A stretch of DNA of 64,000 nucleotides from IMG/VR virus record IMGVR_UViG_3300031654_000269, positions 2,446 through 66,445 of that record; one strand, given 5' to 3'. The notes below the pieces were generated by a model. It made no database searches. It saw only the letters and a program-made list of their open reading frames with translations, and had not been told where the DNA came from. How positions within the stretch are numbered: position 1 is the stretch's first letter; every line of letters starts with the position of its first letter. This DNA comes from a virus. Both the position numbers and the translations under genes were made by a program. Below, piece by piece: positions 4,210 through 20,162 of this stretch.

Positions 4210-4885
4210 ATTCAATTGGATCCTCCTTTCCGAGTAATTTGAATGCTTCAAGACGTTCTTGACAGGCTCCACATTTGCCACAAGATATAGATTGATTCTT
4301 ATAGCACGTACGAGTATATTGATAAGGTACTTGTGGAGTAAGATTATAGCCGATTTTAAGAATATCCGCTTTATTCATATCAAGAAATGGAGCATATACA
4401 GAAACCTTTTCTTCTGTGGCAAAATTAATTGTTATATTCAACGAATGGATAAAATCTTTTCGACAATCCGGATAGATATGATGATCACCAGCATGAACTC
4501 CTAAAGCAATTGTATCGGCTCCTATTGATTGAGCAAGACCCGTCATTATGGATGCAAATATTAAATTACGACCTGGTACAACTGTTTGTTTCATTGATTC
4601 AGCTTCGTAGTGACCTTCAGGAATTGCTCCTCCTGATTGTAAAAGGTCTGAATCAAAAGATTTGAAAGTATTAACCAGGTTAAAGATATGTGCATCTATT
4701 TTATCCCTGAATCCATTTATCAGATAGAAATGAAATACATGAGAGAAAGTATGGAATTCATAAGCATTATGCTTAGAACCATATTGGAAGTTACAACAAT
4801 GAACTTCGACTCCCTTACTGAGCAGAAAGCCCAGTAAGGTTGCCGAATCCATTCCACCGGATAGAGCAAGAACTACTTTCTTCAT
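4199..4885 (-). CDS. queC: 7-cyano-7-deazaguanine synthase
   Basis: SGGMDS PP-loop, [16 protein letters not shown]...[10 protein letters not shown]. Confidence 0.96.
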
Positions 4886-4893
4886 TTAAGTCC

Positions 4894-5784
4894 TTATTTT
4901 CTTCCTTTTTTAAAAGTCATAACTCCTTCAGCATCCTGAACAACCAGGTGAGGGAATTTATTATACTTTGGGTTCTTAGCATCGCTAAGTAAAGTAGCAA
5001 TTCCGGATTTCCCATCAGGTTCTTTTTTCAGGGCTTTTTCAATGAGCTCACTTTTGGTATATTTACCTGATTCGATTAATGGAGTCAAAAATTCAATGCG
5101 GTCTGCTGTGAGTGAACCTCTTTTTTTACTCGAAGTTTTCTTCTCGGATGATCTTCTCTTCGGTTTTTCTTCCTCTTCAGGTTCTTCATCCTTCACTTTG
5201 GCTTTACTTTTCTTCGGAGCAGGTTCATCTTCTTCTTCAAGTAAATCAAGCATGTCAGCCCGCAGGTCTTTCACACCATTCAAACCTTTGTAATCATCCA
5301 GGTCAGGAAGGAGTGATTTGAATTCCTTGTTATCCTCAGCGATGTCCTTCAGCTGATCCAGCTTTTTAGCTGCTTTGATTTGATCAACTAAATCATCATC
5401 CTCAACAACTTCTTCTGGTTCTTCTTCCTCAGGTTCCGGTTCAGGTTTCCTTTTGCTACGAGCAGGTCGTTCTTCAGATTTTTTAGCTGGTGGTTCATCT
5501 TCACCAACGGTGATGTCAAGAACATCCTTCAGTACTTTTACAGCCTTTTTTGAAAATAAATCTGGCTCATCTTCTGCCAGTTCTTCAATAACACCACGGG
5601 CTTTGTCTGTGATATTTTTATCATCATCTTCTTCAAGACTTAAACATTCACAGGCTTCAATAATCTTTTCTTTGATCTCTTCACCATCGGCTTTAAGATC
5701 GATTGCTTGAGGATCATCACTCCCATCTTCAAACAGGAGGTCATTCAAATCCTTTGCACATTTTACTAATTCTGAATTTTTCAT
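4894..5784 (-). CDS. Highly acidic, largely low-complexity protein with a basic C-terminal domain
   Basis: 296 aa with E/D tracts alternating with K/R patches. Confidence 0.75.
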   Translation of the reverse strand: MKNSELVKCAKDLNDLLFEDGSDDPQAIDLKADGEEIKEKIIEACECLSLEEDDDKNITDKARGVIEELAEDEPDLFSKKAVKVLKDVLDITVGEDEPPAKKSEERPARSKRKPEPEPEEEEPEEVVEDDDLVDQIKAAKKLDQLKDIAEDNKEFKSLLPDLDDYKGLNGVKDLRADMLDLLEEEDEPAPKKSKAKVKDEEPEEEEKPKRRSSEKKTSSKKRGSLTADRIEFLTPLIESGKYTKSELIEKALKKEPDGKSGIATLLSDAKNPKYNKFPHLVVQDAEGVMTFKKGRK

Positions 5785-14886: not shown

Positions 14887-14939
14887 AATTACAACGTTTT
14901 TTATTGGTTAAGAGCAGGAATAAATCCTGCTTTCGGTCA
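14887..14939 (-). repeat. Start-associated repeat / hammerhead substrate half-site (CUC)
   Basis: UGACC GAAA GCAGGA-loop-UCCUGC UC UUAACC AAU AAAAAACGUUG UAAUU AUG. Confidence 0.85.
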
Positions 14940-14940
14940 T

Positions 14941-15348
14941 TTAACTCATATAATTTGGACCTCCTGATTTACCACATTTTGAGCAATGGTAATAAATACA
15001 AGGTCCATTTTCAGCGTCTCCAGTATCTTCAATTTCAAAATCATGTTTGCAGTAATGTTGATTTATTTTAATTGTAATCCAAGATAACGTAGAGATTTTT
15101 GGTAATTTAGTGTATTCTCCGGTTGATTCATCATAATCAATTGAGAAAGCATTTCTGTGTTTCCAAGATTCAAATAAATCAAAACAATTTACAATCCATT
15201 GTGGGAGTAACCAATACTTCTTTCTGCTAAAAATAATGTATTGAGGATATTTCTTATCCTTCTTCCATTTAAAAAGTAGACCACTGTTAGGATTTACTCT
15301 TGATCCGGAAGTTTCTAGACTAAAAAGTCGATTCTTAAATATTAACAT
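14941..15348 (-). CDS. Hypothetical early protein with a C-terminal Cys/His cluster
   Basis: Start reassigned to 15348 (MLIFKNR) directly after a partial repeat; CKH...CSKC. Confidence 0.7.
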   Translation of the reverse strand: MLIFKNRLFSLETSGSRVNPNSGLLFKWKKDKKYPQYIIFSRKKYWLLPQWIVNCFDLFESWKHRNAFSIDYDESTGEYTKLPKISTLSWITIKINQHYCKHDFEIEDTGDAENGPCIYYHCSKCGKSGGPNYMS

Positions 15349-15369
15349 AATTACAACGTTTTTGGTTAA
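15349..15369 (-). repeat. Degenerate start-associated repeat lacking the GAAA hairpin
   Basis: UUAACC AAAAACGUUGUAAUU AUG only. Confidence 0.75.
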
Positions 15370-15484
15370 ACATATAAATAAATGCGTGAGCCTGTTTCCA
15401 GTCCTCTTACGTCTCTCCGGCTCAAGACAGATACCCAACAATTGAACTATCTAGCTCATTCAATTGATACAGGCGTGACCTTTG

Positions 15485-15549
15485 TGGAGCCAACGGATGG
15501 ATTCGAACCATCCTCCCTTATTAGTTCGGGAGTGCCATTTTTCGCTGGC
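15485..15549 (-). ncRNA. D-armless tRNA-like RNA with encoded CCA
   Basis: Acceptor GCCAGCG/CGTTGGC, T arm GATGG-TTCGAAT-CCATC, discriminator T plus CCA, 10-nt D-replacement loop, CTCCC/GGGAG stem with a 10-nt loop. Confidence 0.7.
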
Positions 15550-15562
15550 ATATTTTTTTAAA

Positions 15563-15640
15563 GAGTCCTCAATCTATCTAACCTAAGAGTTAACCCTACA
15601 CGAAAGAAACGAAACCTCCCCTCTTAGAGATTGAGGACTC
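15563..15640. ncRNA. Long hairpin element between early genes
   Basis: 13-bp perfect outer stem gagtcctcaatct/agattgaggactc plus inner ctaagag/ctcttag stem. Confidence 0.55.
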
Positions 15641-15671
15641 ACATTTGTCATAGGATAACGTTGTAATCAAC

Positions 15672-15884
15672 CTATGACGGAGTTGTTTCTTTATGATGAT
15701 GCTTCGTTCTTTTCATTTTAATTATCGCACCATAGCTTGGATTTCTACGGACATTCTTCATATAGCATGGGTAGCATTGATCTGCATCCGGATTCTTGTC
15801 AACCAAATTCTGCTTCAGTGGTTTACCACATGTTTTGCAGTGTTTGTTGCTTAAAATTTTGTAATCGTGTTTTTTGTTTTTCAT
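15672..15884 (-). CDS. Small zinc-finger protein
   Basis: CKTC...CYPC. Confidence 0.7.
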   Translation of the reverse strand: MKNKKHDYKILSNKHCKTCGKPLKQNLVDKNPDADQCYPCYMKNVRRNPSYGAIIKMKRTKHHHKETTPS

Positions 15885-16408
15885 TTTAATAAAGTTAATC
15901 CGTATTTTAATATTTTGATTTGAATCTTTTCTTTATCAGCATCAGCAGCATAAGCAGCAGCAGCATAAGCAGCAGCAGCATAAGCAGCAGCATAAGCATA
16001 AGCAGCATCAGCAGCATAAGCAGCATAAGCAGCATAAGCAGCAGCAGCATCAGCAGCATAAGCAGCAGCAGCATAAGCAGCAGCAGCATTTTTATTCTTA
16101 GTTGATTGTCTATTTAAGTATCTTTCAGCTGCTTCAATAGCTTTCTCTGGTCGATCATCATCAGGATACTTTTTTTGATAAATAGGTAAAACCAATTTTG
16201 CAGCAAATACGGCATATTGTACTCTCTGTTTTTTGTTCATTAATTTTACAATCAACCAATTTGCCCAATCCAAACGGAATCTATTATTAATAGAATAATT
16301 GAGTAATTTAATTGGATTCTCTATTGGATGAGATTTGAACCATTCAATGCCTTCGATACAGGCACCATAGTTACTTAATAAATTAAGAGTGATTTTTTTT
16401 GTCTTCAT
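15881..16408 (-). CDS. Ala/Tyr-repeat protein (Imm5-like DDRPxKAIEAA segment)
   Basis: Start reassigned to 16408 (MKTKKIT) after a repeat; AAAYA tandem block. Confidence 0.75.
   Translation of the reverse strand: MKTKKITLNLLSNYGACIEGIEWFKSHPIENPIKLLNYSINNRFRLDWANWLIVKLMNKKQRVQYAVFAAKLVLPIYQKKYPDDDRPEKAIEAAERYLNRQSTKNKNAAAAYAAAAYAADAAAAYAAYAAYAADAAYAYAAAYAAAAYAAAAYAADADKEKIQIKILKYGLTLLK
15938..16088 (-). repeat. Coding microsatellite of GCT codons interspersed with TAT/GAT
   Basis: About 50 codons of AAAYAAAAYAADAAAAY... Confidence 0.9.
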
Positions 16409-16458
16409 AACAACGTTTTTATTGGTTAATAGCCTGAAATTAATCAGGCTTTCGGTCA
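16409..16458 (-). repeat. Start-associated repeat / hammerhead substrate half-site (CUA)
   Basis: UGACC GAAA GCCUGA-loop-UCAGGC UA UUAACC AAU AAAAACGUUG UU AUG. Confidence 0.85.
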
Positions 16459-16653: not shown

Positions 16654-16704
16654 AACAACGTTTTTATTGGTTAATAGTCCCTTATAAAAAGGGACTTTCG
16701 GTCA
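16654..16704 (-). repeat. Start-associated repeat / hammerhead substrate half-site (CUA)
   Basis: UGACC GAAA GUCCCUU-loop-AAGGGAC UA UUAACC AAU AAAAACGUUG UU AUG. Confidence 0.85.
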
Positions 16705-16929
16705 TTTTAAATAAATAAAATCATATGCATGTTTATTAAGTACAATCTTAGCATTATGAATATTTGATAATGCAATAAATTTAGTAATAGCACTTTCTGA
16801 ATCAAATCCAGATTCTAATACATTTTCATCCTGAGAGATTGAAAAAGTACAATCTGTCATTTTATCAAGATAATAGGTAAGTCCACCTTTCTCGAAAGTA
16901 AAAATAGTAATTTCAGTTTCGTTTTCCAT
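16702..16929 (-). CDS. Hypothetical early protein
   Basis: Start reassigned to 16929 (MENETEI) after a repeat. Confidence 0.75.
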   Translation of the reverse strand: MENETEITIFTFEKGGLTYYLDKMTDCTFSISQDENVLESGFDSESAITKFIALSNIHNAKIVLNKHAYDFIYLK

Positions 16930-16985
16930 AATTACAACGTTTTTATTGGTTAAAATCCTAACCATTAAAGATTAGGATTTCGGTC
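16930..16985 (-). repeat. Start-associated repeat / hammerhead substrate half-site (AUU)
   Basis: GACC GAAA UCCUAA-loop-UUAGGA UU UUAACC AAU AAAAACGUUG UAAUU AUG. Confidence 0.85.
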
Positions 16986-16987
16986 GT

Positions 16988-17233
16988 TTAATACTCATGC
17001 TGAGGATACCTCGTATAAGATAATCCATTTTTTTCCATTGTGAATTGACGATATCCTACTGTAAACCGTTTAAAGTATTCCGTTTTACATTTAGGATCAA
17101 CATCAATTTGCCTAGCCCAAACAGATTCCCCATCCTTTAAAACATTCATAAAACCTTTTATGGTTTTAATGATTTGTCCTTTCAGACTTTTACGTCCTTC
17201 ACATACATCAACAATTTCATATTCTGTTCTCAT
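16988..17233 (-). CDS. Hypothetical early protein
   Basis: Start reassigned to 17233 (MRTEYEI) after a repeat. Confidence 0.75.
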   Translation of the reverse strand: MRTEYEIVDVCEGRKSLKGQIIKTIKGFMNVLKDGESVWARQIDVDPKCKTEYFKRFTVGYRQFTMEKNGLSYTRYPQHEY

Positions 17234-17292
17234 AATACAACGTTTTTTATTGGTTAATACAGTGAGCTTAAAAATACTCACTGTTTCGGTCA
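17234..17292 (-). repeat. Start-associated repeat / hammerhead substrate half-site (GUA)
   Basis: UGACC GAAA CAGUGAG-loop-CUCACUG UA UUAACC AAU AAAAAACGUUG UAUU AUG. Confidence 0.85.
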
Positions 17293-17499
17293 GTTTAAAT
17301 TTGTTCTAATCGTTCCTGTATATCCAAGTCCATGAAAGAACCGGACAAATGAAGAGATGTCTTTTGCAATAATCATCTCACGGGAGACTTTCTTGCTACG
17401 AGAGTTACTCGTTACTACATCAACGAACCATTTGTCAGGATCGGATGTTTCAAATTCTATTGTAGAATTTTTTCTGTGGAGGCTGCCGGGGAATTTCAT
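17290..17499 (-). CDS. Hypothetical early protein
   Basis: 69 aa, ATGA-coupled to the upstream gene. Confidence 0.7.
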   Translation of the reverse strand: MKFPGSLHRKNSTIEFETSDPDKWFVDVVTSNSRSKKVSREMIIAKDISSFVRFFHGLGYTGTIRTNLN

Positions 17500-17870
17500 T
17501 TTTTTAAATCTTTACGAGAATCCTCCCATTGGATTATCCATTGTTTATCTTTAAAAATCCAATAACAATCAGCTATCCTTGTTCCATTAGAACCATCTGT
17601 AATATAATGAAAGGTAAAATTTAATGGAAGCCAGTATTCTTCCATACTTTGAGATAAACCTCCTCCAAAATTGGTTATTTTGAAAGAAGAATAAAAGTTT
17701 TGGAGTACTCCTGTCTGAGCTTTTAGTTCTTGGGAAGATAATTCAATGTATTGTCTTCCATCTCTGTATTGAGATACGTTTGTAGTTAATATCAAATCAA
17801 TTCCAAATTTCTTAGAAATGATTTTCGTTAAACTAGTAAAGTCAAAATCAATCAATTCCAAATTTTTCAT
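17496..17870 (-). CDS. Hypothetical early protein
   Basis: 124 aa directly after a repeat. Confidence 0.75.
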   Translation of the reverse strand: MKNLELIDFDFTSLTKIISKKFGIDLILTTNVSQYRDGRQYIELSSQELKAQTGVLQNFYSSFKITNFGGGLSQSMEEYWLPLNFTFHYITDGSNGTRIADCYWIFKDKQWIIQWEDSRKDLKK

Positions 17871-17924
17871 AACAACGTTTTTATTGGTTAATAGGCCAAG
17901 TAATAATACTTAGCCTTTCGGTCA
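17871..17924 (-). repeat. Start-associated repeat / hammerhead substrate half-site (CUA)
   Basis: UGACC GAAA GGCUAAGUA-loop-UACUUGGCC UA UUAACC AAU AAAAACGUUG UU AUG; one U-G wobble in the stem. Confidence 0.85.
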
Positions 17925-17926
17925 AA

Positions 17927-18226
17927 TTACCATCTTCTTGTTTCGGTAACCTTAACATCCTTTACTCTGAATTCTTCAGGAATGGATACTTTCCATCCTC
18001 CATCATCCTCCCAAGTTACATCATAACCCAAGGCTTCAAGTAATTTTGGTACAGGGTTATCTTTTTCTACACCACTTCCATAAATTACTACTTGATTTTC
18101 TGCTGGATTAAAGAATTCATACAGTTTGTGCATATCACAATTCCTAATTATATGAGCCGGTTTATAAAAATTATTACCTGCTTGATAAATAGGAAATTTT
18201 TTTGATTTCTCAAATGAATTTTTCAT
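17927..18226 (-). CDS. Hypothetical early protein
   Basis: Start reassigned to 18226 (MKNSFEK) after a repeat. Confidence 0.75.
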   Translation of the reverse strand: MKNSFEKSKKFPIYQAGNNFYKPAHIIRNCDMHKLYEFFNPAENQVVIYGSGVEKDNPVPKLLEALGYDVTWEDDGGWKVSIPEEFRVKDVKVTETRRW

Positions 18227-18282
18227 AATTACAACGTTTTTATTGGTTAATAGCAGGATAATAAAAATCCTGCTTTCGGTCA
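18227..18282 (-). repeat. Start-associated repeat / hammerhead substrate half-site (CUA)
   Basis: UGACC GAAA GCAGGAU-loop-AUCCUGC UA UUAACC AAU AAAAACGUUG UAAUU AUG. Confidence 0.85.
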
Positions 18283-18285
18283 CAT

Positions 18286-18507
18286 CTATAACAAATTTAA
18301 TAGGTCTTTATTATTCCTTTGACCCGTTGCAGTTCCCATATGTAGAGTTTTTGCGTGATTTTGTAACTTCTCAAAGCATTCTATTGTATCGGGTGTTTGA
18401 ATTTCAGTCTGTTTTCCACCTATAAAATAAACAAATTCAAAAAATTCTCCGTCAACACTAATAGCTTTTATAGAAGTTTTTCCGGACATAGCTTCAAATT
18501 TTTTCAT
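18286..18507 (-). CDS. Hypothetical early protein
   Basis: 73 aa, first gene downstream of the ribozyme leader. Confidence 0.75.
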   Translation of the reverse strand: MKKFEAMSGKTSIKAISVDGEFFEFVYFIGGKQTEIQTPDTIECFEKLQNHAKTLHMGTATGQRNNKDLLNLL

Positions 18508-18655
18508 AATTACAACGTTTTTTATTGGTTAAGACCCAGCCAACTCGTGACCGGGTTTCAATCTTTATAATGTGCTTACAGCTTAGACCATTCTAAATAA
18601 ATAGAATCTGGACGAATCCAGTCATCAGTTAACCTCACTGTAAGCAAAAAACGTT
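18508..18655 (-). ncRNA. Hammerhead-like ribozyme: catalytic strand plus its proximal cis half-site (GUC)
   Basis: AACGUUUUUU GCUUACAG UGA GGUUAA CUGAUGA [CUGGA UUCG UCCAG][AUUCUA..UAGAAU] GGUCU AAG CUGUAAGC ... AGAUU GAAA CCCGGUCA-loop-UGGCUGGG UC UUAACC AAU AAAAAACGUU. All hammerhead core nucleotides are present, with a non-canonical insertion after A9. Confidence 0.75.
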
Positions 18656-18811
18656 TGAAAAAGAATCTTGGGAGAAGTAATACCTTTTATGTGTTGGTGC
18701 GGTTTCGATGGCCCGGCGTGATTAAATATTAACGGTGGTGCACTGCCGGAAAGGTGAATCGCTGACTTCGATTCTTATTGGTGTCCTTTTTTCGAGCTTC
18801 TCTCTTTCAGA

Positions 18812-18823
18812 ATGTCAATGAAC
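18812..18823 (-). promoter_or_regulatory. boxA-like antitermination element
   Basis: GTTCATTGACAT resembles rrn boxA (GYTCTTTAANA family) and lies in the early leader. Confidence 0.5.
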
Positions 18824-18854
18824 GTGTAGGTAGGAAAATGTTTCGTCTTTTACT

Positions 18855-18927
18855 GCCAATTCCCCGGCTCATTTACGAGTCCGGGGCACACCTGCCGATT
18901 ACTTACGACAGGATTGGCGGCAGGGTG
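18855..18927 (-). ncRNA. GC-rich pseudoknot-like structured element in the early leader
   Basis: CCUGCC/GGCAGG stem; loop GCCAAU is complementary to AUUGGC located after a CCCCGG/CCGGGG hairpin. Confidence 0.5.
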
Positions 18928-19176
18928 TTATTTTACTGCTTTATAAAGTTCTTCAAATATGTTGTAATAAGTTTGTGAAAGACGATAACGAGCTTTTATA
19001 ACTCGTGCCTTTTTGCAGGTAGTAGTGAACCTATCATAAACATTGGTAGTTTCGTTTTGAATACGATTCCAAAAGTTCTGAAGTTCTCTTTTTGAAGAAA
19101 CTTTTTCAGTAGCTTCTGATTTCAAGCAGATTCTGTAATTTCCGCTTTTGAGTTGTTTAAAGTAAATTGTTTTCAT
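18928..19176 (-). CDS. Hypothetical protein, first gene of the leftward early transcript
   Basis: 82 aa basic ORF right after the promoter. Confidence 0.7.
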   Translation of the reverse strand: MKTIYFKQLKSGNYRICLKSEATEKVSSKRELQNFWNRIQNETTNVYDRFTTTCKKARVIKARYRLSQTYYNIFEELYKAVK

Positions 19177-19209
19177 TGTCGTAAGTATTTGTTTGTATTA
19201 ATCAATACG

Positions 19210-19241
19210 TAAATATAGGTATAATGTTTTAAAAAAACAAG
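19210..19241 (-). promoter_or_regulatory. Bacteroidota-type early promoter (leftward)
   Basis: CTTG-N20-TATATTTA, close to the TTTG/TAnnTTTG consensus. Confidence 0.6.
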
Positions 19242-19319
19242 ACTTTTTAAATTTATTTTTTAAAAAAACGCCTTTTTTTATATAAATCAGCTGTTTATTG
19301 AAAAATAATTCAAATAAAA

Positions 19320-19351
19320 CTAGGATTAAATGATACAAATTTATAAATTTT
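19320..19351 (+). promoter_or_regulatory. Putative rightward (packaging/structural) promoter
   Basis: CTAG-N20-TAAATTTT in the divergent AT-rich intergenic region. Confidence 0.45.
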
Positions 19352-19386
19352 ACTCCATAGATCAAATTACTGACTAAAAAGGAGGG

Positions 19387-19602
19387 ATGGAAATAGCATT
19401 AATCATATTAGGGAGCTGTATTTTGTTATTTATCTGTAACTGGATTTATTATGCAATTGCTATTATCCGGAGTAGAAAGAAAATCAGAAATCTACGAGAG
19501 GAATTTAACGGATATTTGAGTGGAGATATGGATGCTAACGTTCACAAATATGTCAAACGATTTCCTGAATCAGAACTTGCAAAACTCATGAGAAAAAACT
19601 AA
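19387..19602 (+). CDS. Small membrane protein
   Basis: N-terminal TM helix; AGGAGG upstream. Confidence 0.7.
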   Translation: MEIALIILGSCILLFICNWIYYAIAIIRSRKKIRNLREEFNGYLSGDMDANVHKYVKRFPESELAKLMRKN

Positions 19603-19610
19603 GTTAAAAA

Positions 19611-20162
19611 ATGATACGTACCCGTAAAAGAAAAGTCAGACCTGATACATATAGAAAACCAGGACGAAAGGGAGTATATGATTCAACTACTCCTGAACGT
19701 GCGATTTGGCTTATGGCACGTGGACTTACAGAAAAAGATTTAGCAGTAGCATTTGGAGTAAATGTAACTACAATTGAGCGATGGCAACGTGATCTTCCAG
19801 AATTTAGTGAGGCCATGCAAAAAGGTAAAAAGCAGGCAGATGAAAATGTAGTAAAATCTTTATACAAGAGTGCAATGGGATACTCTCATCGTGATATTAA
19901 AATCGTATCAACTAAAGATGGAGTATTGACAATCCCTATTTTAAAACACTATCCACCTGATGTGACGGCTTGTATATTCTGGCTTAAAAATCGTCAACGT
20001 GAAGATTGGGCTGACGTACAAAAATTTGAGAGTACTGCAAATATGAATATAAATGTTAATGGAAAACTTGACTTATCAATACTTTCAGGAGAGGAACAGA
20101 GATTAATAAAATCAATAGCTATTAAACGATTAAAATCAATAGAAGGTGTCAGACACAATTGA
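19611..20162 (+). CDS. terS: Terminase small subunit
   Basis: HTH (GLTEKDLAVAFGVNVTTIERW), PPDVTACIFWLKNR; directly upstream of the large subunit. Confidence 0.88.
   Translation: MIRTRKRKVRPDTYRKPGRKGVYDSTTPERAIWLMARGLTEKDLAVAFGVNVTTIERWQRDLPEFSEAMQKGKKQADENVVKSLYKSAMGYSHRDIKIVSTKDGVLTIPILKHYPPDVTACIFWLKNRQREDWADVQKFESTANMNINVNGKLDLSILSGEEQRLIKSIAIKRLKSIEGVRHN

Follow-up and report, generated by a model that had tools for sequence, protein, structure and literature searches.

A predicted type-I hammerhead with a two-hairpin insertion in its catalytic strand, and seven half-hammerhead sites, in one phage operon

The virus genome IMGVR_UViG_3300031654_000269, a 66,445-nucleotide (nt) record with terminal repeats, carries on its minus strand a predicted hammerhead ribozyme whose catalytic strand is interrupted by two adjacent hairpins. 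The element precedes the first gene of an operon of small orphan genes that ends at an SNF2-type helicase, and seven gene junctions downstream on the same strand have the form GACC-GAAA-hairpin-UH-UUAACC-leader-AUG without a CUGANGA core of their own. We analyzed positions 2,446 to 66,445 of the record, a stretch of 64,000 nt that we call the window and whose numbering is used throughout. Our favored explanation is that the one interrupted catalytic strand is an enzyme shared by the adjacent cis site and the seven half sites, with the insertion tolerated. Taken in full, this reading of the sequence stands, in our estimate, at an even balance between right and wrong.

RESULTS

A 32-nt insertion between A9 and G10.1

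Minus-strand positions 18634-18586 read GGUUAA CUGAUGA CUGGA-UUCG-UCCAG AUUCUA-UUUAUU-UAGAAU GGUC. The hammerhead core CUGANGA is present as CUGAUGA at 18628-18622, and TTAACTGANGA occurs only once in the whole record. A preliminary description of this DNA had reported that CUGAUGA is followed, with no spacer, by a UUCG-capped hairpin of 5 bp and a hairpin of 6 bp and then by GGUC; both the sequence and the fold of the minus strand bear this out. The two hairpins fill positions 18590-18621 exactly (32 nt). No unpaired base is present at the joints between A9 and hairpin 1, between hairpins 1 and 2, or between hairpin 2 and GGUC, and the same holds for the four corners A9/C, G/A, U/G10.1, and C11.1/G12. 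The 32 nt fold as both hairpins at -9.0 kcal/mol (z = -3.18), which is equaled by 2 of 200 dinucleotide shuffles.

The full order on the minus strand is AACGUUUUUU (18655-18646), GCUUACAG (18645-18638), UGA, GGUUAA, CUGAUGA, hairpins 1 and 2, and GGUC, followed by UAAG, CUGUAAGC (18581-18574), ACAUUAUAAA, and GAUU-GAAA (18563-18556). Behind GAAA come a 21-nt stem III hairpin (18555-18535), UC (18534-18533), UUAACC (18532-18527), and a 19-nt leader that runs to the AUG at 18507 (Table 1). The C, G, and S blocks therefore follow one another in the classical order and not in one of the noncircular permutations (SGC, CSG, or GCS). By its sequence, the element is classed as a type-I hammerhead located directly before a gene start.

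Two relatives were used to place the insertion. In L042 (a 70,896-nt record that is 97% complete) and L289 (an 11.4-kb metagenome contig), GGUC follows CUGAYGA with 0 nt between them, as opposed to 32 nt in the window, and complete relatives have either 0 nt or one U at A9/G10.1. Because GGUC, the linker, and the 3′ strand of the P0 helix described below align with those of the uninterrupted L042 and L289, the additional sequence is placed between A9 and G10.1 (the three modules were compared downstream of the core by eye and by script). We interpret the 32 nt as a lineage-specific two-hairpin insertion in the only C block, that is, the strand carrying CUGANGA, of the genome. That the hairpins are a true insertion in this block, as the preliminary description had held, also agrees with the available text of Eckert et al. 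2023 (PMC10085705): in the hammerhead alignments known to those authors, insertions at A9/G10.1 are never longer than 1-2 nt, and in their block C stems I and II adjoin CUGANGA within that distance, whereas here 32 nt separate A9 from GGUC.

Parts of the stretch are present in four sequencing runs labelled salt marsh metagenome (X1 to X4), of which X1 may be the source. One contig from X2 covers 18519-18846 without gaps, with all 10 differences lying upstream of the module at 18700-18742, and one from X3 covers 18572-18669 without gaps and with 4 differences. Since these contigs span the module without gaps, the insertion is not an assembly artifact of a single sample. A look-alike of hairpin 2, AUUUUAUUUAUUUAAAAU, is found at 16704-16721 (minus strand), with two differences that change a C-G pair to U-A; it immediately precedes GACC in half site 5, within the end of an open reading frame (ORF), and may be a chance occurrence in AT-rich sequence.

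Half sites keep the substrate strand and a uniform GACC

The seven half sites of the window, each of them intact, lie 0.3 to 3.7 kb downstream of the C block, and their GACC and UUAACC match its GGUC and GGUUAA, as in a discontinuous hammerhead. The cis site and the half sites (8/8) have GAAA, a hairpin of 6-9 bp, and a U, allowing closure by A15.1-U16.1; in the half sites, stem III is fully paired over these 6-9 bp and has a different sequence at each site. The cleavage dinucleotides are UC, UA (five sites), UU, and UC, each followed by UUAACC, letters that the search pattern required.

One C block together with three to eight half sites is the layout common to the window, L042 (one TTAACTGANGA and three half sites), and L289 (one C block and eight half sites). 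GAAA, U16.1, an H17 other than G, and UUAACC are present in all 18 half sites of these three phages, and GACC is present in 17; the sites were found by searching for the GAAA, U16.1, H17, and UUAACC letters, and the GACC count is the sole independent observation. After one ascertained GACC copy was dropped per array or locus, GACC is found in 14 of 15 half sites versus none of 37 copies from arrays of complete hammerheads (Fisher P = 8.5e-12, a value whose strength is overstated because the loci are partly non-independent). In the complete-hammerhead arrays, stem II varies between copies. The stem II sequence of the cis site is the weaker partner of GGUC in each of the three phages (GAUU, GACU, and GAAC). 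H17 is A in 15 of 18 half sites and C in 43 of 54 complete copies, with some search patterns requiring UA. We infer that the uniform GACC may reflect selection to pair with the single GGUUAA...GGUC strand, either in trans or over a long range.

Two further observations concern individual half sites. At 16455, in half site 6, a single X2 contig (depth 3) has GAUC in place of GACC, a change that preserves pairing with GGUC by way of a G-U pair. At 14940-14973 (minus strand), inside the ORF upstream of the site at 14934, there is a decayed C block, GGU-AAAUCAGGA-GGUC, scoring 21 bits against the family model.

Hammerhead relatives and model searches

Pattern scans of viral, metagenome, and other loci identify 55 distinct complete type-I hammerheads with the stem I pair GGUUAA/UUAACC. 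They occur on dozens of phage contigs in arrays of 2-6 per contig, a few bases before gene starts; in the broad viral scan, arrays were counted among the matches listed, and more may exist. We aligned 45 of the 55 copies, 10 having been removed by eye as near-duplicates or for long or odd stems II or III. In this alignment, 97.6% of cells are paired and covariation is 0.516 versus 0.125 in shuffles, a level reached by none of 500, with both-sided changes at three of four stem II pairs and five of six stem III pairs. The invariance of stem I in the subfamily is a requirement of the search, and its sequence differs among the hammerheads of helicase-related phages. Stem II of the window (GGUC with GAUU or GACC) shows no variation on which covariation could act.

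The window helicase shares 48% identity with that of L042 and at most 37% with those of isolated phages. A single-query helicase search returned no relatives in either viral or metagenome contigs; a search with a helicase alignment returned 80 loci, of which 6 have complete hammerheads and none has a half-site array. Among 74 loci in viral contigs that match the pattern GGTTAACTGAYGAH-N15-45-GGTC, no window-like insertion was found, and the leader pattern matched no viral contig. Half-site patterns yielded no new array in viral contigs (4, 3, and 10 loci), four loci in metagenome contigs, one of them L289, and at least 120 loci in genome contigs, with no real site among the matches listed. Compared with isolated phages by BLAST, the region shows only 41-nt matches at chance level. 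At about 2000-2060 of L211, which belongs to a helicase-related phage, a hammerhead core reads GUGAUCA, with C3 changed to G3 and G8 to C8.

The preliminary description expected the Rfam hammerhead models to match weakly or not at all, and indeed the window has no Rfam match at gathering score. At E values up to 10, 17500-19800 has no hammerhead match and only chance-level matches, and L042 4000-6600 likewise has only chance-level matches. The further claim that covariance models would miss this architecture holds in outcome only: relatives without the insertion are missed as well, so the insertion alone does not account for the miss. Across L038, L128, and L129, which carry complete copies, Rfam returns one weak RAGATH-1-hammerhead match (28.9 bits versus a gathering score of 56.3). 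A subfamily model built from the 45 complete copies (R1) matches the window at 18633-18528 with 20.5 bits (E 0.014) and passes over 62 nt where stem II would be; for the uninterrupted cis hammerheads of L289 and L042, it gives 46 bits (E 9e-9) and 40.4 bits (E 2e-7), respectively. Half sites have low scores against the family model.

A closing helix and an anti-leader flank the catalytic strand

The window, L042, and L289 each have a helix, here named P0, between a strand that lies 2-3 nt 5′ of GGUUAA and one that lies 4-5 nt 3′ of GGUC. The paired sequences are not the same in the three phages: UGCUUACAG/CUGUAAGCA in the window (9 bp, matched by 21 of 2000 shuffles), UCUACAGUCUU/AAGACUGUAGA in L042 (11 bp, 1 of 2000), and CUCCGG/CCGGAG in L289 (6 bp, 359 of 2000). 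P0 crosses stems I and II. For a distant site, P0 makes the catalytic strand a stem-loop of its own and tethers the far ends of the arms; within the cis hammerhead, it amounts to a loop II/5′-flank pseudoknot such as Perreault et al. 2011 (PMC3088659) describe.

In the window and in L289, P0 is immediately preceded by an anti-leader, which in both cases ends 11 nt before GGUUAA. Nine bases of the window anti-leader also pair with the leaders at the sites beyond the first gene. In L289, the anti-leader AUACUUUAUUU, whose sequence is unlike that of the window, pairs with the leader AAAUAAAGUAU over 11 bp (0 of 2000 shuffles). After UUAACC, every leader has an AAUAAA to which the UUUAUU loop of hairpin 2 is complementary; this potential pairing overlaps that of the anti-leader. 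Hairpin 2 and stem I are both 6 bp long.

Table 1. Coordinates of the predicted hammerhead module and its partner sites in the window
Feature	Start	End	Strand	Remarks
Anti-leader AACGUUUUUU	18646	18655	-	Complementary to the first gene's leader AAAAAACGUU; 10 bp, 16/2000 shuffles
P0 5′ strand GCUUACAG	18638	18645	-	Pairs with 18581-18574; with one additional U, 9 bp
Stem I enzyme arm GGUUAA	18629	18634	-	Complementary to UUAACC of 8/8 sites
Hammerhead core CUGAUGA (C3-A9)	18622	18628	-	Sole TTAACTGANGA of the 66,445-nt record
Inserted hairpin 1 CUGGA-UUCG-UCCAG	18608	18621	-	-4.4 kcal/mol, z -4.39; not in L042 or L289
Inserted hairpin 2 AUUCUA-UUUAUU-UAGAAU	18590	18607	-	-3.1 kcal/mol, z -4.48; not in L042 or L289
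Stem II enzyme arm GGUC (G10.1 onward)	18586	18589	-	Offset from A9 32 nt, versus 0 nt in L042 and L289
P0 3′ strand CUGUAAGC	18574	18581	-	Partner of 18638-18645
Cis partner site GAUU-GAAA-stem III (CCCGGUCA/UGGCUGGG)-UC-UUAACC	18527	18563	-	Predicted cut 18533/18532
Leader AAUAAAAAACGUUGUAAUU preceding the AUG at 18507	18508	18526	-	Recurs before 8 further gene starts
Half-hammerhead 1 (GACC-GAAA-hairpin-UA-UUAACC)	18245	18281	-	Without its own CUGANGA
Half-hammerhead 2	17886	17923	-	
Half-hammerhead 3	17252	17291	-	
Half-hammerhead 4	16948	16985	-	UU at cleavage site
Half-hammerhead 5	16669	16703	-	
Half-hammerhead 6	16424	16457	-	
Half-hammerhead 7 (site 14934)	14906	14938	-	UC at cleavage site; family model 21 bits, E 0.01
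Degenerate eighth copy (near 15398)	15364	15402	-	Leader retained; stem III and UH absent

Operon context and side observations

Two of 10 small proteins of the operon match PHROGs, both in families of unknown function. A promoter scan was uninformative, with 19 sites versus 23.3 expected. The motif ACGTNCATTGACAT, common to the window (about 18812-18825, minus strand) and L042 (4357-4370), lies about 200 nt upstream of the module and is possibly the operon promoter.

Contigs of other strains join half sites to one another: 16665-17281 in X3 (side 160), 16933-17872 in X4, and 16953-17281 in X2 (side 27, weak), skipping 615, 938, and 327 nt, respectively. At the X3 joint, a new 9-bp stem III lies between intact GACC-GAAA and UA-UUAACC flanks. 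Half sites thus appear to be break points of gene-cassette exchange, for which metagenome joints at 80% likeness are only a hint.

The gap that holds the degenerate half site includes a 324-nt gene-free stretch at 15348-15672 (minus strand; -99.6 kcal/mol, z -3.68). Within it, 15549-15489 resembles part of a tRNA, with an acceptor-like stem, a T arm with GGUUCGAAUCC, and then UCCA; ARAGORN finds nothing at this piece, and an Rfam search of 15300-15750 at E values up to 10 gives a mascRNA-like match at chance level (15.7 bits, E 2.1). The piece may be a cut site for host RNase P or RNase Z that replaces a hammerhead. Positions 15669-15657 are complementary to the leader of the next gene.

At 15900-16100, one cassette gene has an Ala/Tyr-rich low-complexity coding repeat, which is taken to be common to other organisms because the summed contig depth there reaches 393 versus 12 around it. 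In L042, the intergenic stretches between cassette genes at 4830-4960 and 5200-5290 are GC rich and look structured, with no Rfam match.

DISCUSSION

In the mechanism that we favor, the anti-leader, the P0 5′ strand, GGUUAA, CUGAUGA, the two hairpins, GGUC, and the P0 3′ strand would make up one module closed by P0. Together with the adjacent GAUU-GAAA-stem III-UC/UUAACC, this module would form a type-I hammerhead ahead of the first gene of the minus-strand operon. The GGUUAA and GGUC arms would also pair with the seven half sites, either in trans or across a stretch of the same transcript, and the half sites would be cut after H17. The polycistronic RNA would thereby be divided into messages for single genes, each starting with UUAACC and ending in a stem III hairpin. 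Four helices (the core helix, stem II, and the two hairpins) would meet in a perfect four-way junction, an arrangement that is possible because neither hairpin has a flanking unpaired base. Stacking of stem II on the core and of hairpin 1 on hairpin 2 would keep the catalytic geometry, whereas the alternative stacking would misplace stem II. The insertion would then be tolerated or would modulate activity, with stem II not replaced. A bolder version, which we consider doubtful, is that the hairpins turn the base of stem II into a four-way-junction stacking switch that gates a trans hammerhead with multiple substrates, recognized by a 4+6(+10)-bp code, and times early message release. Its setting could depend on Mg2+, on a phage or host protein, or on a kissing interaction between UUUAUU in the hairpin 2 loop and AAUAAA in the leader, and the whole would be a small RNA endonuclease employed by the phage.

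A working interrupted strand is favored by the intact state of all half sites in the window and by the gapless module in the X2 and X3 contigs, and the new stem III between intact flanks at the X3 joint also speaks for the shared-enzyme reading. Several points weigh against a shared enzyme with a tolerated insertion. No RNA run was found among the sequencing runs that contain the stretch, and cleavage is a prediction. The insertion is seen in a single lineage, which leaves hairpins 1 and 2 without covariation support, and the window copy scores half the R1 bits of its relatives. The A9/G10.1 junction lies next to a catalytic metal site, where an insertion could cripple the ribozyme. All three phages share the arms GGUUAA and GGUC, so enzyme-substrate covariation is absent, and the uniform GACC could instead come from cassette recombination or a protein site. 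L042 lacks an anti-leader. Where there is one, stem I and the anti-leader together would bind the 3′ product through about 16 bp, an arrangement that speaks against fast turnover.

The alternative to be taken most seriously, although we regard it as unlikely, is that the insertion has killed the only C block, that the half sites are relics of complete hammerheads, and that any processing is done by proteins. Relic half sites could be kept as hairpins that protect 3′ ends, as translation leaders, or as recombination points of gene cassettes. Decay of hammerheads in this array is evident from the C block before 14934, the low family-model scores of the half sites point the same way, and the joints in other strains suggest cassette exchange. 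Leaders are conserved within complete-hammerhead arrays too, so their conservation needs no trans pairing, and the tRNA-like piece in the gap with the degenerate half site could recruit host enzymes. Against decay, the 18 half sites keep their substrate letters, including GACC in all but one, when the C block has left no trace at any but one of them, and this uniformity contrasts with its absence from the 37 copies of complete arrays. In addition, the C blocks of L042 and L289 are intact and uninterrupted, and the half sites there would thus have a working partner. A related possibility is that only the cis hammerhead works and that the half sites bind the arms uncut, as a decoy or antisense-like control of translation, or never interact with them. 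The anti-leader in two of the three phages, which pairs with gene leaders over 10-11 bp and would mask the translation start region, is consistent with such control; however, the half sites hold every substrate-side nucleotide, and pairing with a complete C block should give a competent core. We consider this option improbable.

The preliminary description had also raised the possibility that the UUCG hairpin itself acts as stem II, with hairpin 2 and GGUC as a spacer. Hairpin 1 does follow A9 directly, like a canonical stem II, but AUUCUA, and not GAAA, comes after its 3′ strand. What stands before each GAAA is GACC or GAUU, which pair with GGUC and not with hairpin 1. GGUC is also stem II in L042 and L289, with which the window aligns from GGUC through the 4-5-nt linker to the 3′ strand of P0. 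We therefore give this assignment almost no credence. It is also very improbable that the inverted repeats act as DNA (as operators or a small palindromic insertion) or that hairpin 1 with a U-rich tail is a weak terminator, placed here by accident. Both hairpins do have perfect palindromic arms, and hairpin 1 (5 bp, tail AUUCUAUUUA) is one of the 7 sites given by a terminator scan, versus 2.8 +/- 1.6 in shuffles. The 32 nt nevertheless fill the A9/G10.1 gap exactly, with no spare base; no further copy of hairpin 1 occurs in the window beyond chance when up to 3 mismatches are allowed; and a 5-bp stem at -4.4 kcal/mol is weak for a terminator.

The layout proposed for the shared enzyme resembles some systems that are known. 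A bimolecular laboratory hammerhead in the I/II format was reportedly made by Uhlenbeck in 1987; its enzyme strand is reported to have CUGAUGA between the stem I and II arms, as here, and its substrate strand to carry GAAA, a closed stem III, and the cleavage site, but it is a laboratory design without P0 closure, anti-leader, or insertion. The four-way-junction form of the hairpin ribozyme has a perfectly paired four-helix junction beside its catalytic core, although this ribozyme is of another class. The literature searched yielded no hammerhead with a four-way junction at the stem II base.

Among natural hammerheads, a close parallel is that of Perreault et al. 2011 (PMC3088659), in which clustered complete hammerheads flank single prophage genes. 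The core, the type-I block order, and the position between small phage genes are the same, cutting of long transcripts into single-gene RNAs was proposed there as well, and their pseudoknot between loop II and the stem I 5′ flank resembles P0. Each of those sites is described as self-cleaving, whereas here one C block stands for three to eight sites and that of the window is interrupted by 32 nt. The discontinuous hammerhead in mammalian Clec2 3′ untranslated regions (Martick et al. 2008, as covered in the available text of PMC6765202) likewise has its enzyme and substrate strands far apart on the mRNA, but it pairs one enzyme strand with one substrate strand in a eukaryote, as opposed to one enzyme and many substrates in a phage operon. 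According to the same 2019 review, as far as its available text goes, the discontinuous mammalian hammerhead spurred a search for natural trans-cleaving small ribozymes that was then still open. The SGC and CSG permutations of Eckert et al. 2023 (PMC10085705, available text) also break assumptions about connectivity, and in them helices connect the distal ends of stems I and II; there, intact C, G, and S blocks are reordered, whereas the window keeps the classical C-G-S order and has its C block interrupted. Neither a natural phage hammerhead acting in trans or sharing a strand nor a large A9/G10.1 insertion was found in the literature searched, which left out subscription journals; supplements, including those of Perreault 2011 and Eckert 2023, may hold variants.

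Hammerheads are the classic example of self-cleaving RNAs. A natural small ribozyme that serves several separate sites has been sought, and none is reported in the literature searched. Three phages with one catalytic strand and many strandless partner sites make the question of trans cleavage directly testable with short synthetic RNAs. The window also has 32 structured nt at A9/G10.1, a site that hammerhead search patterns and permutation schemes assume to be uninterruptible. If the ribozyme is active, hammerhead descriptors miss real architectures, and the P0-closed module with its four-way junction would be a natural scaffold for engineered trans-ribozymes.
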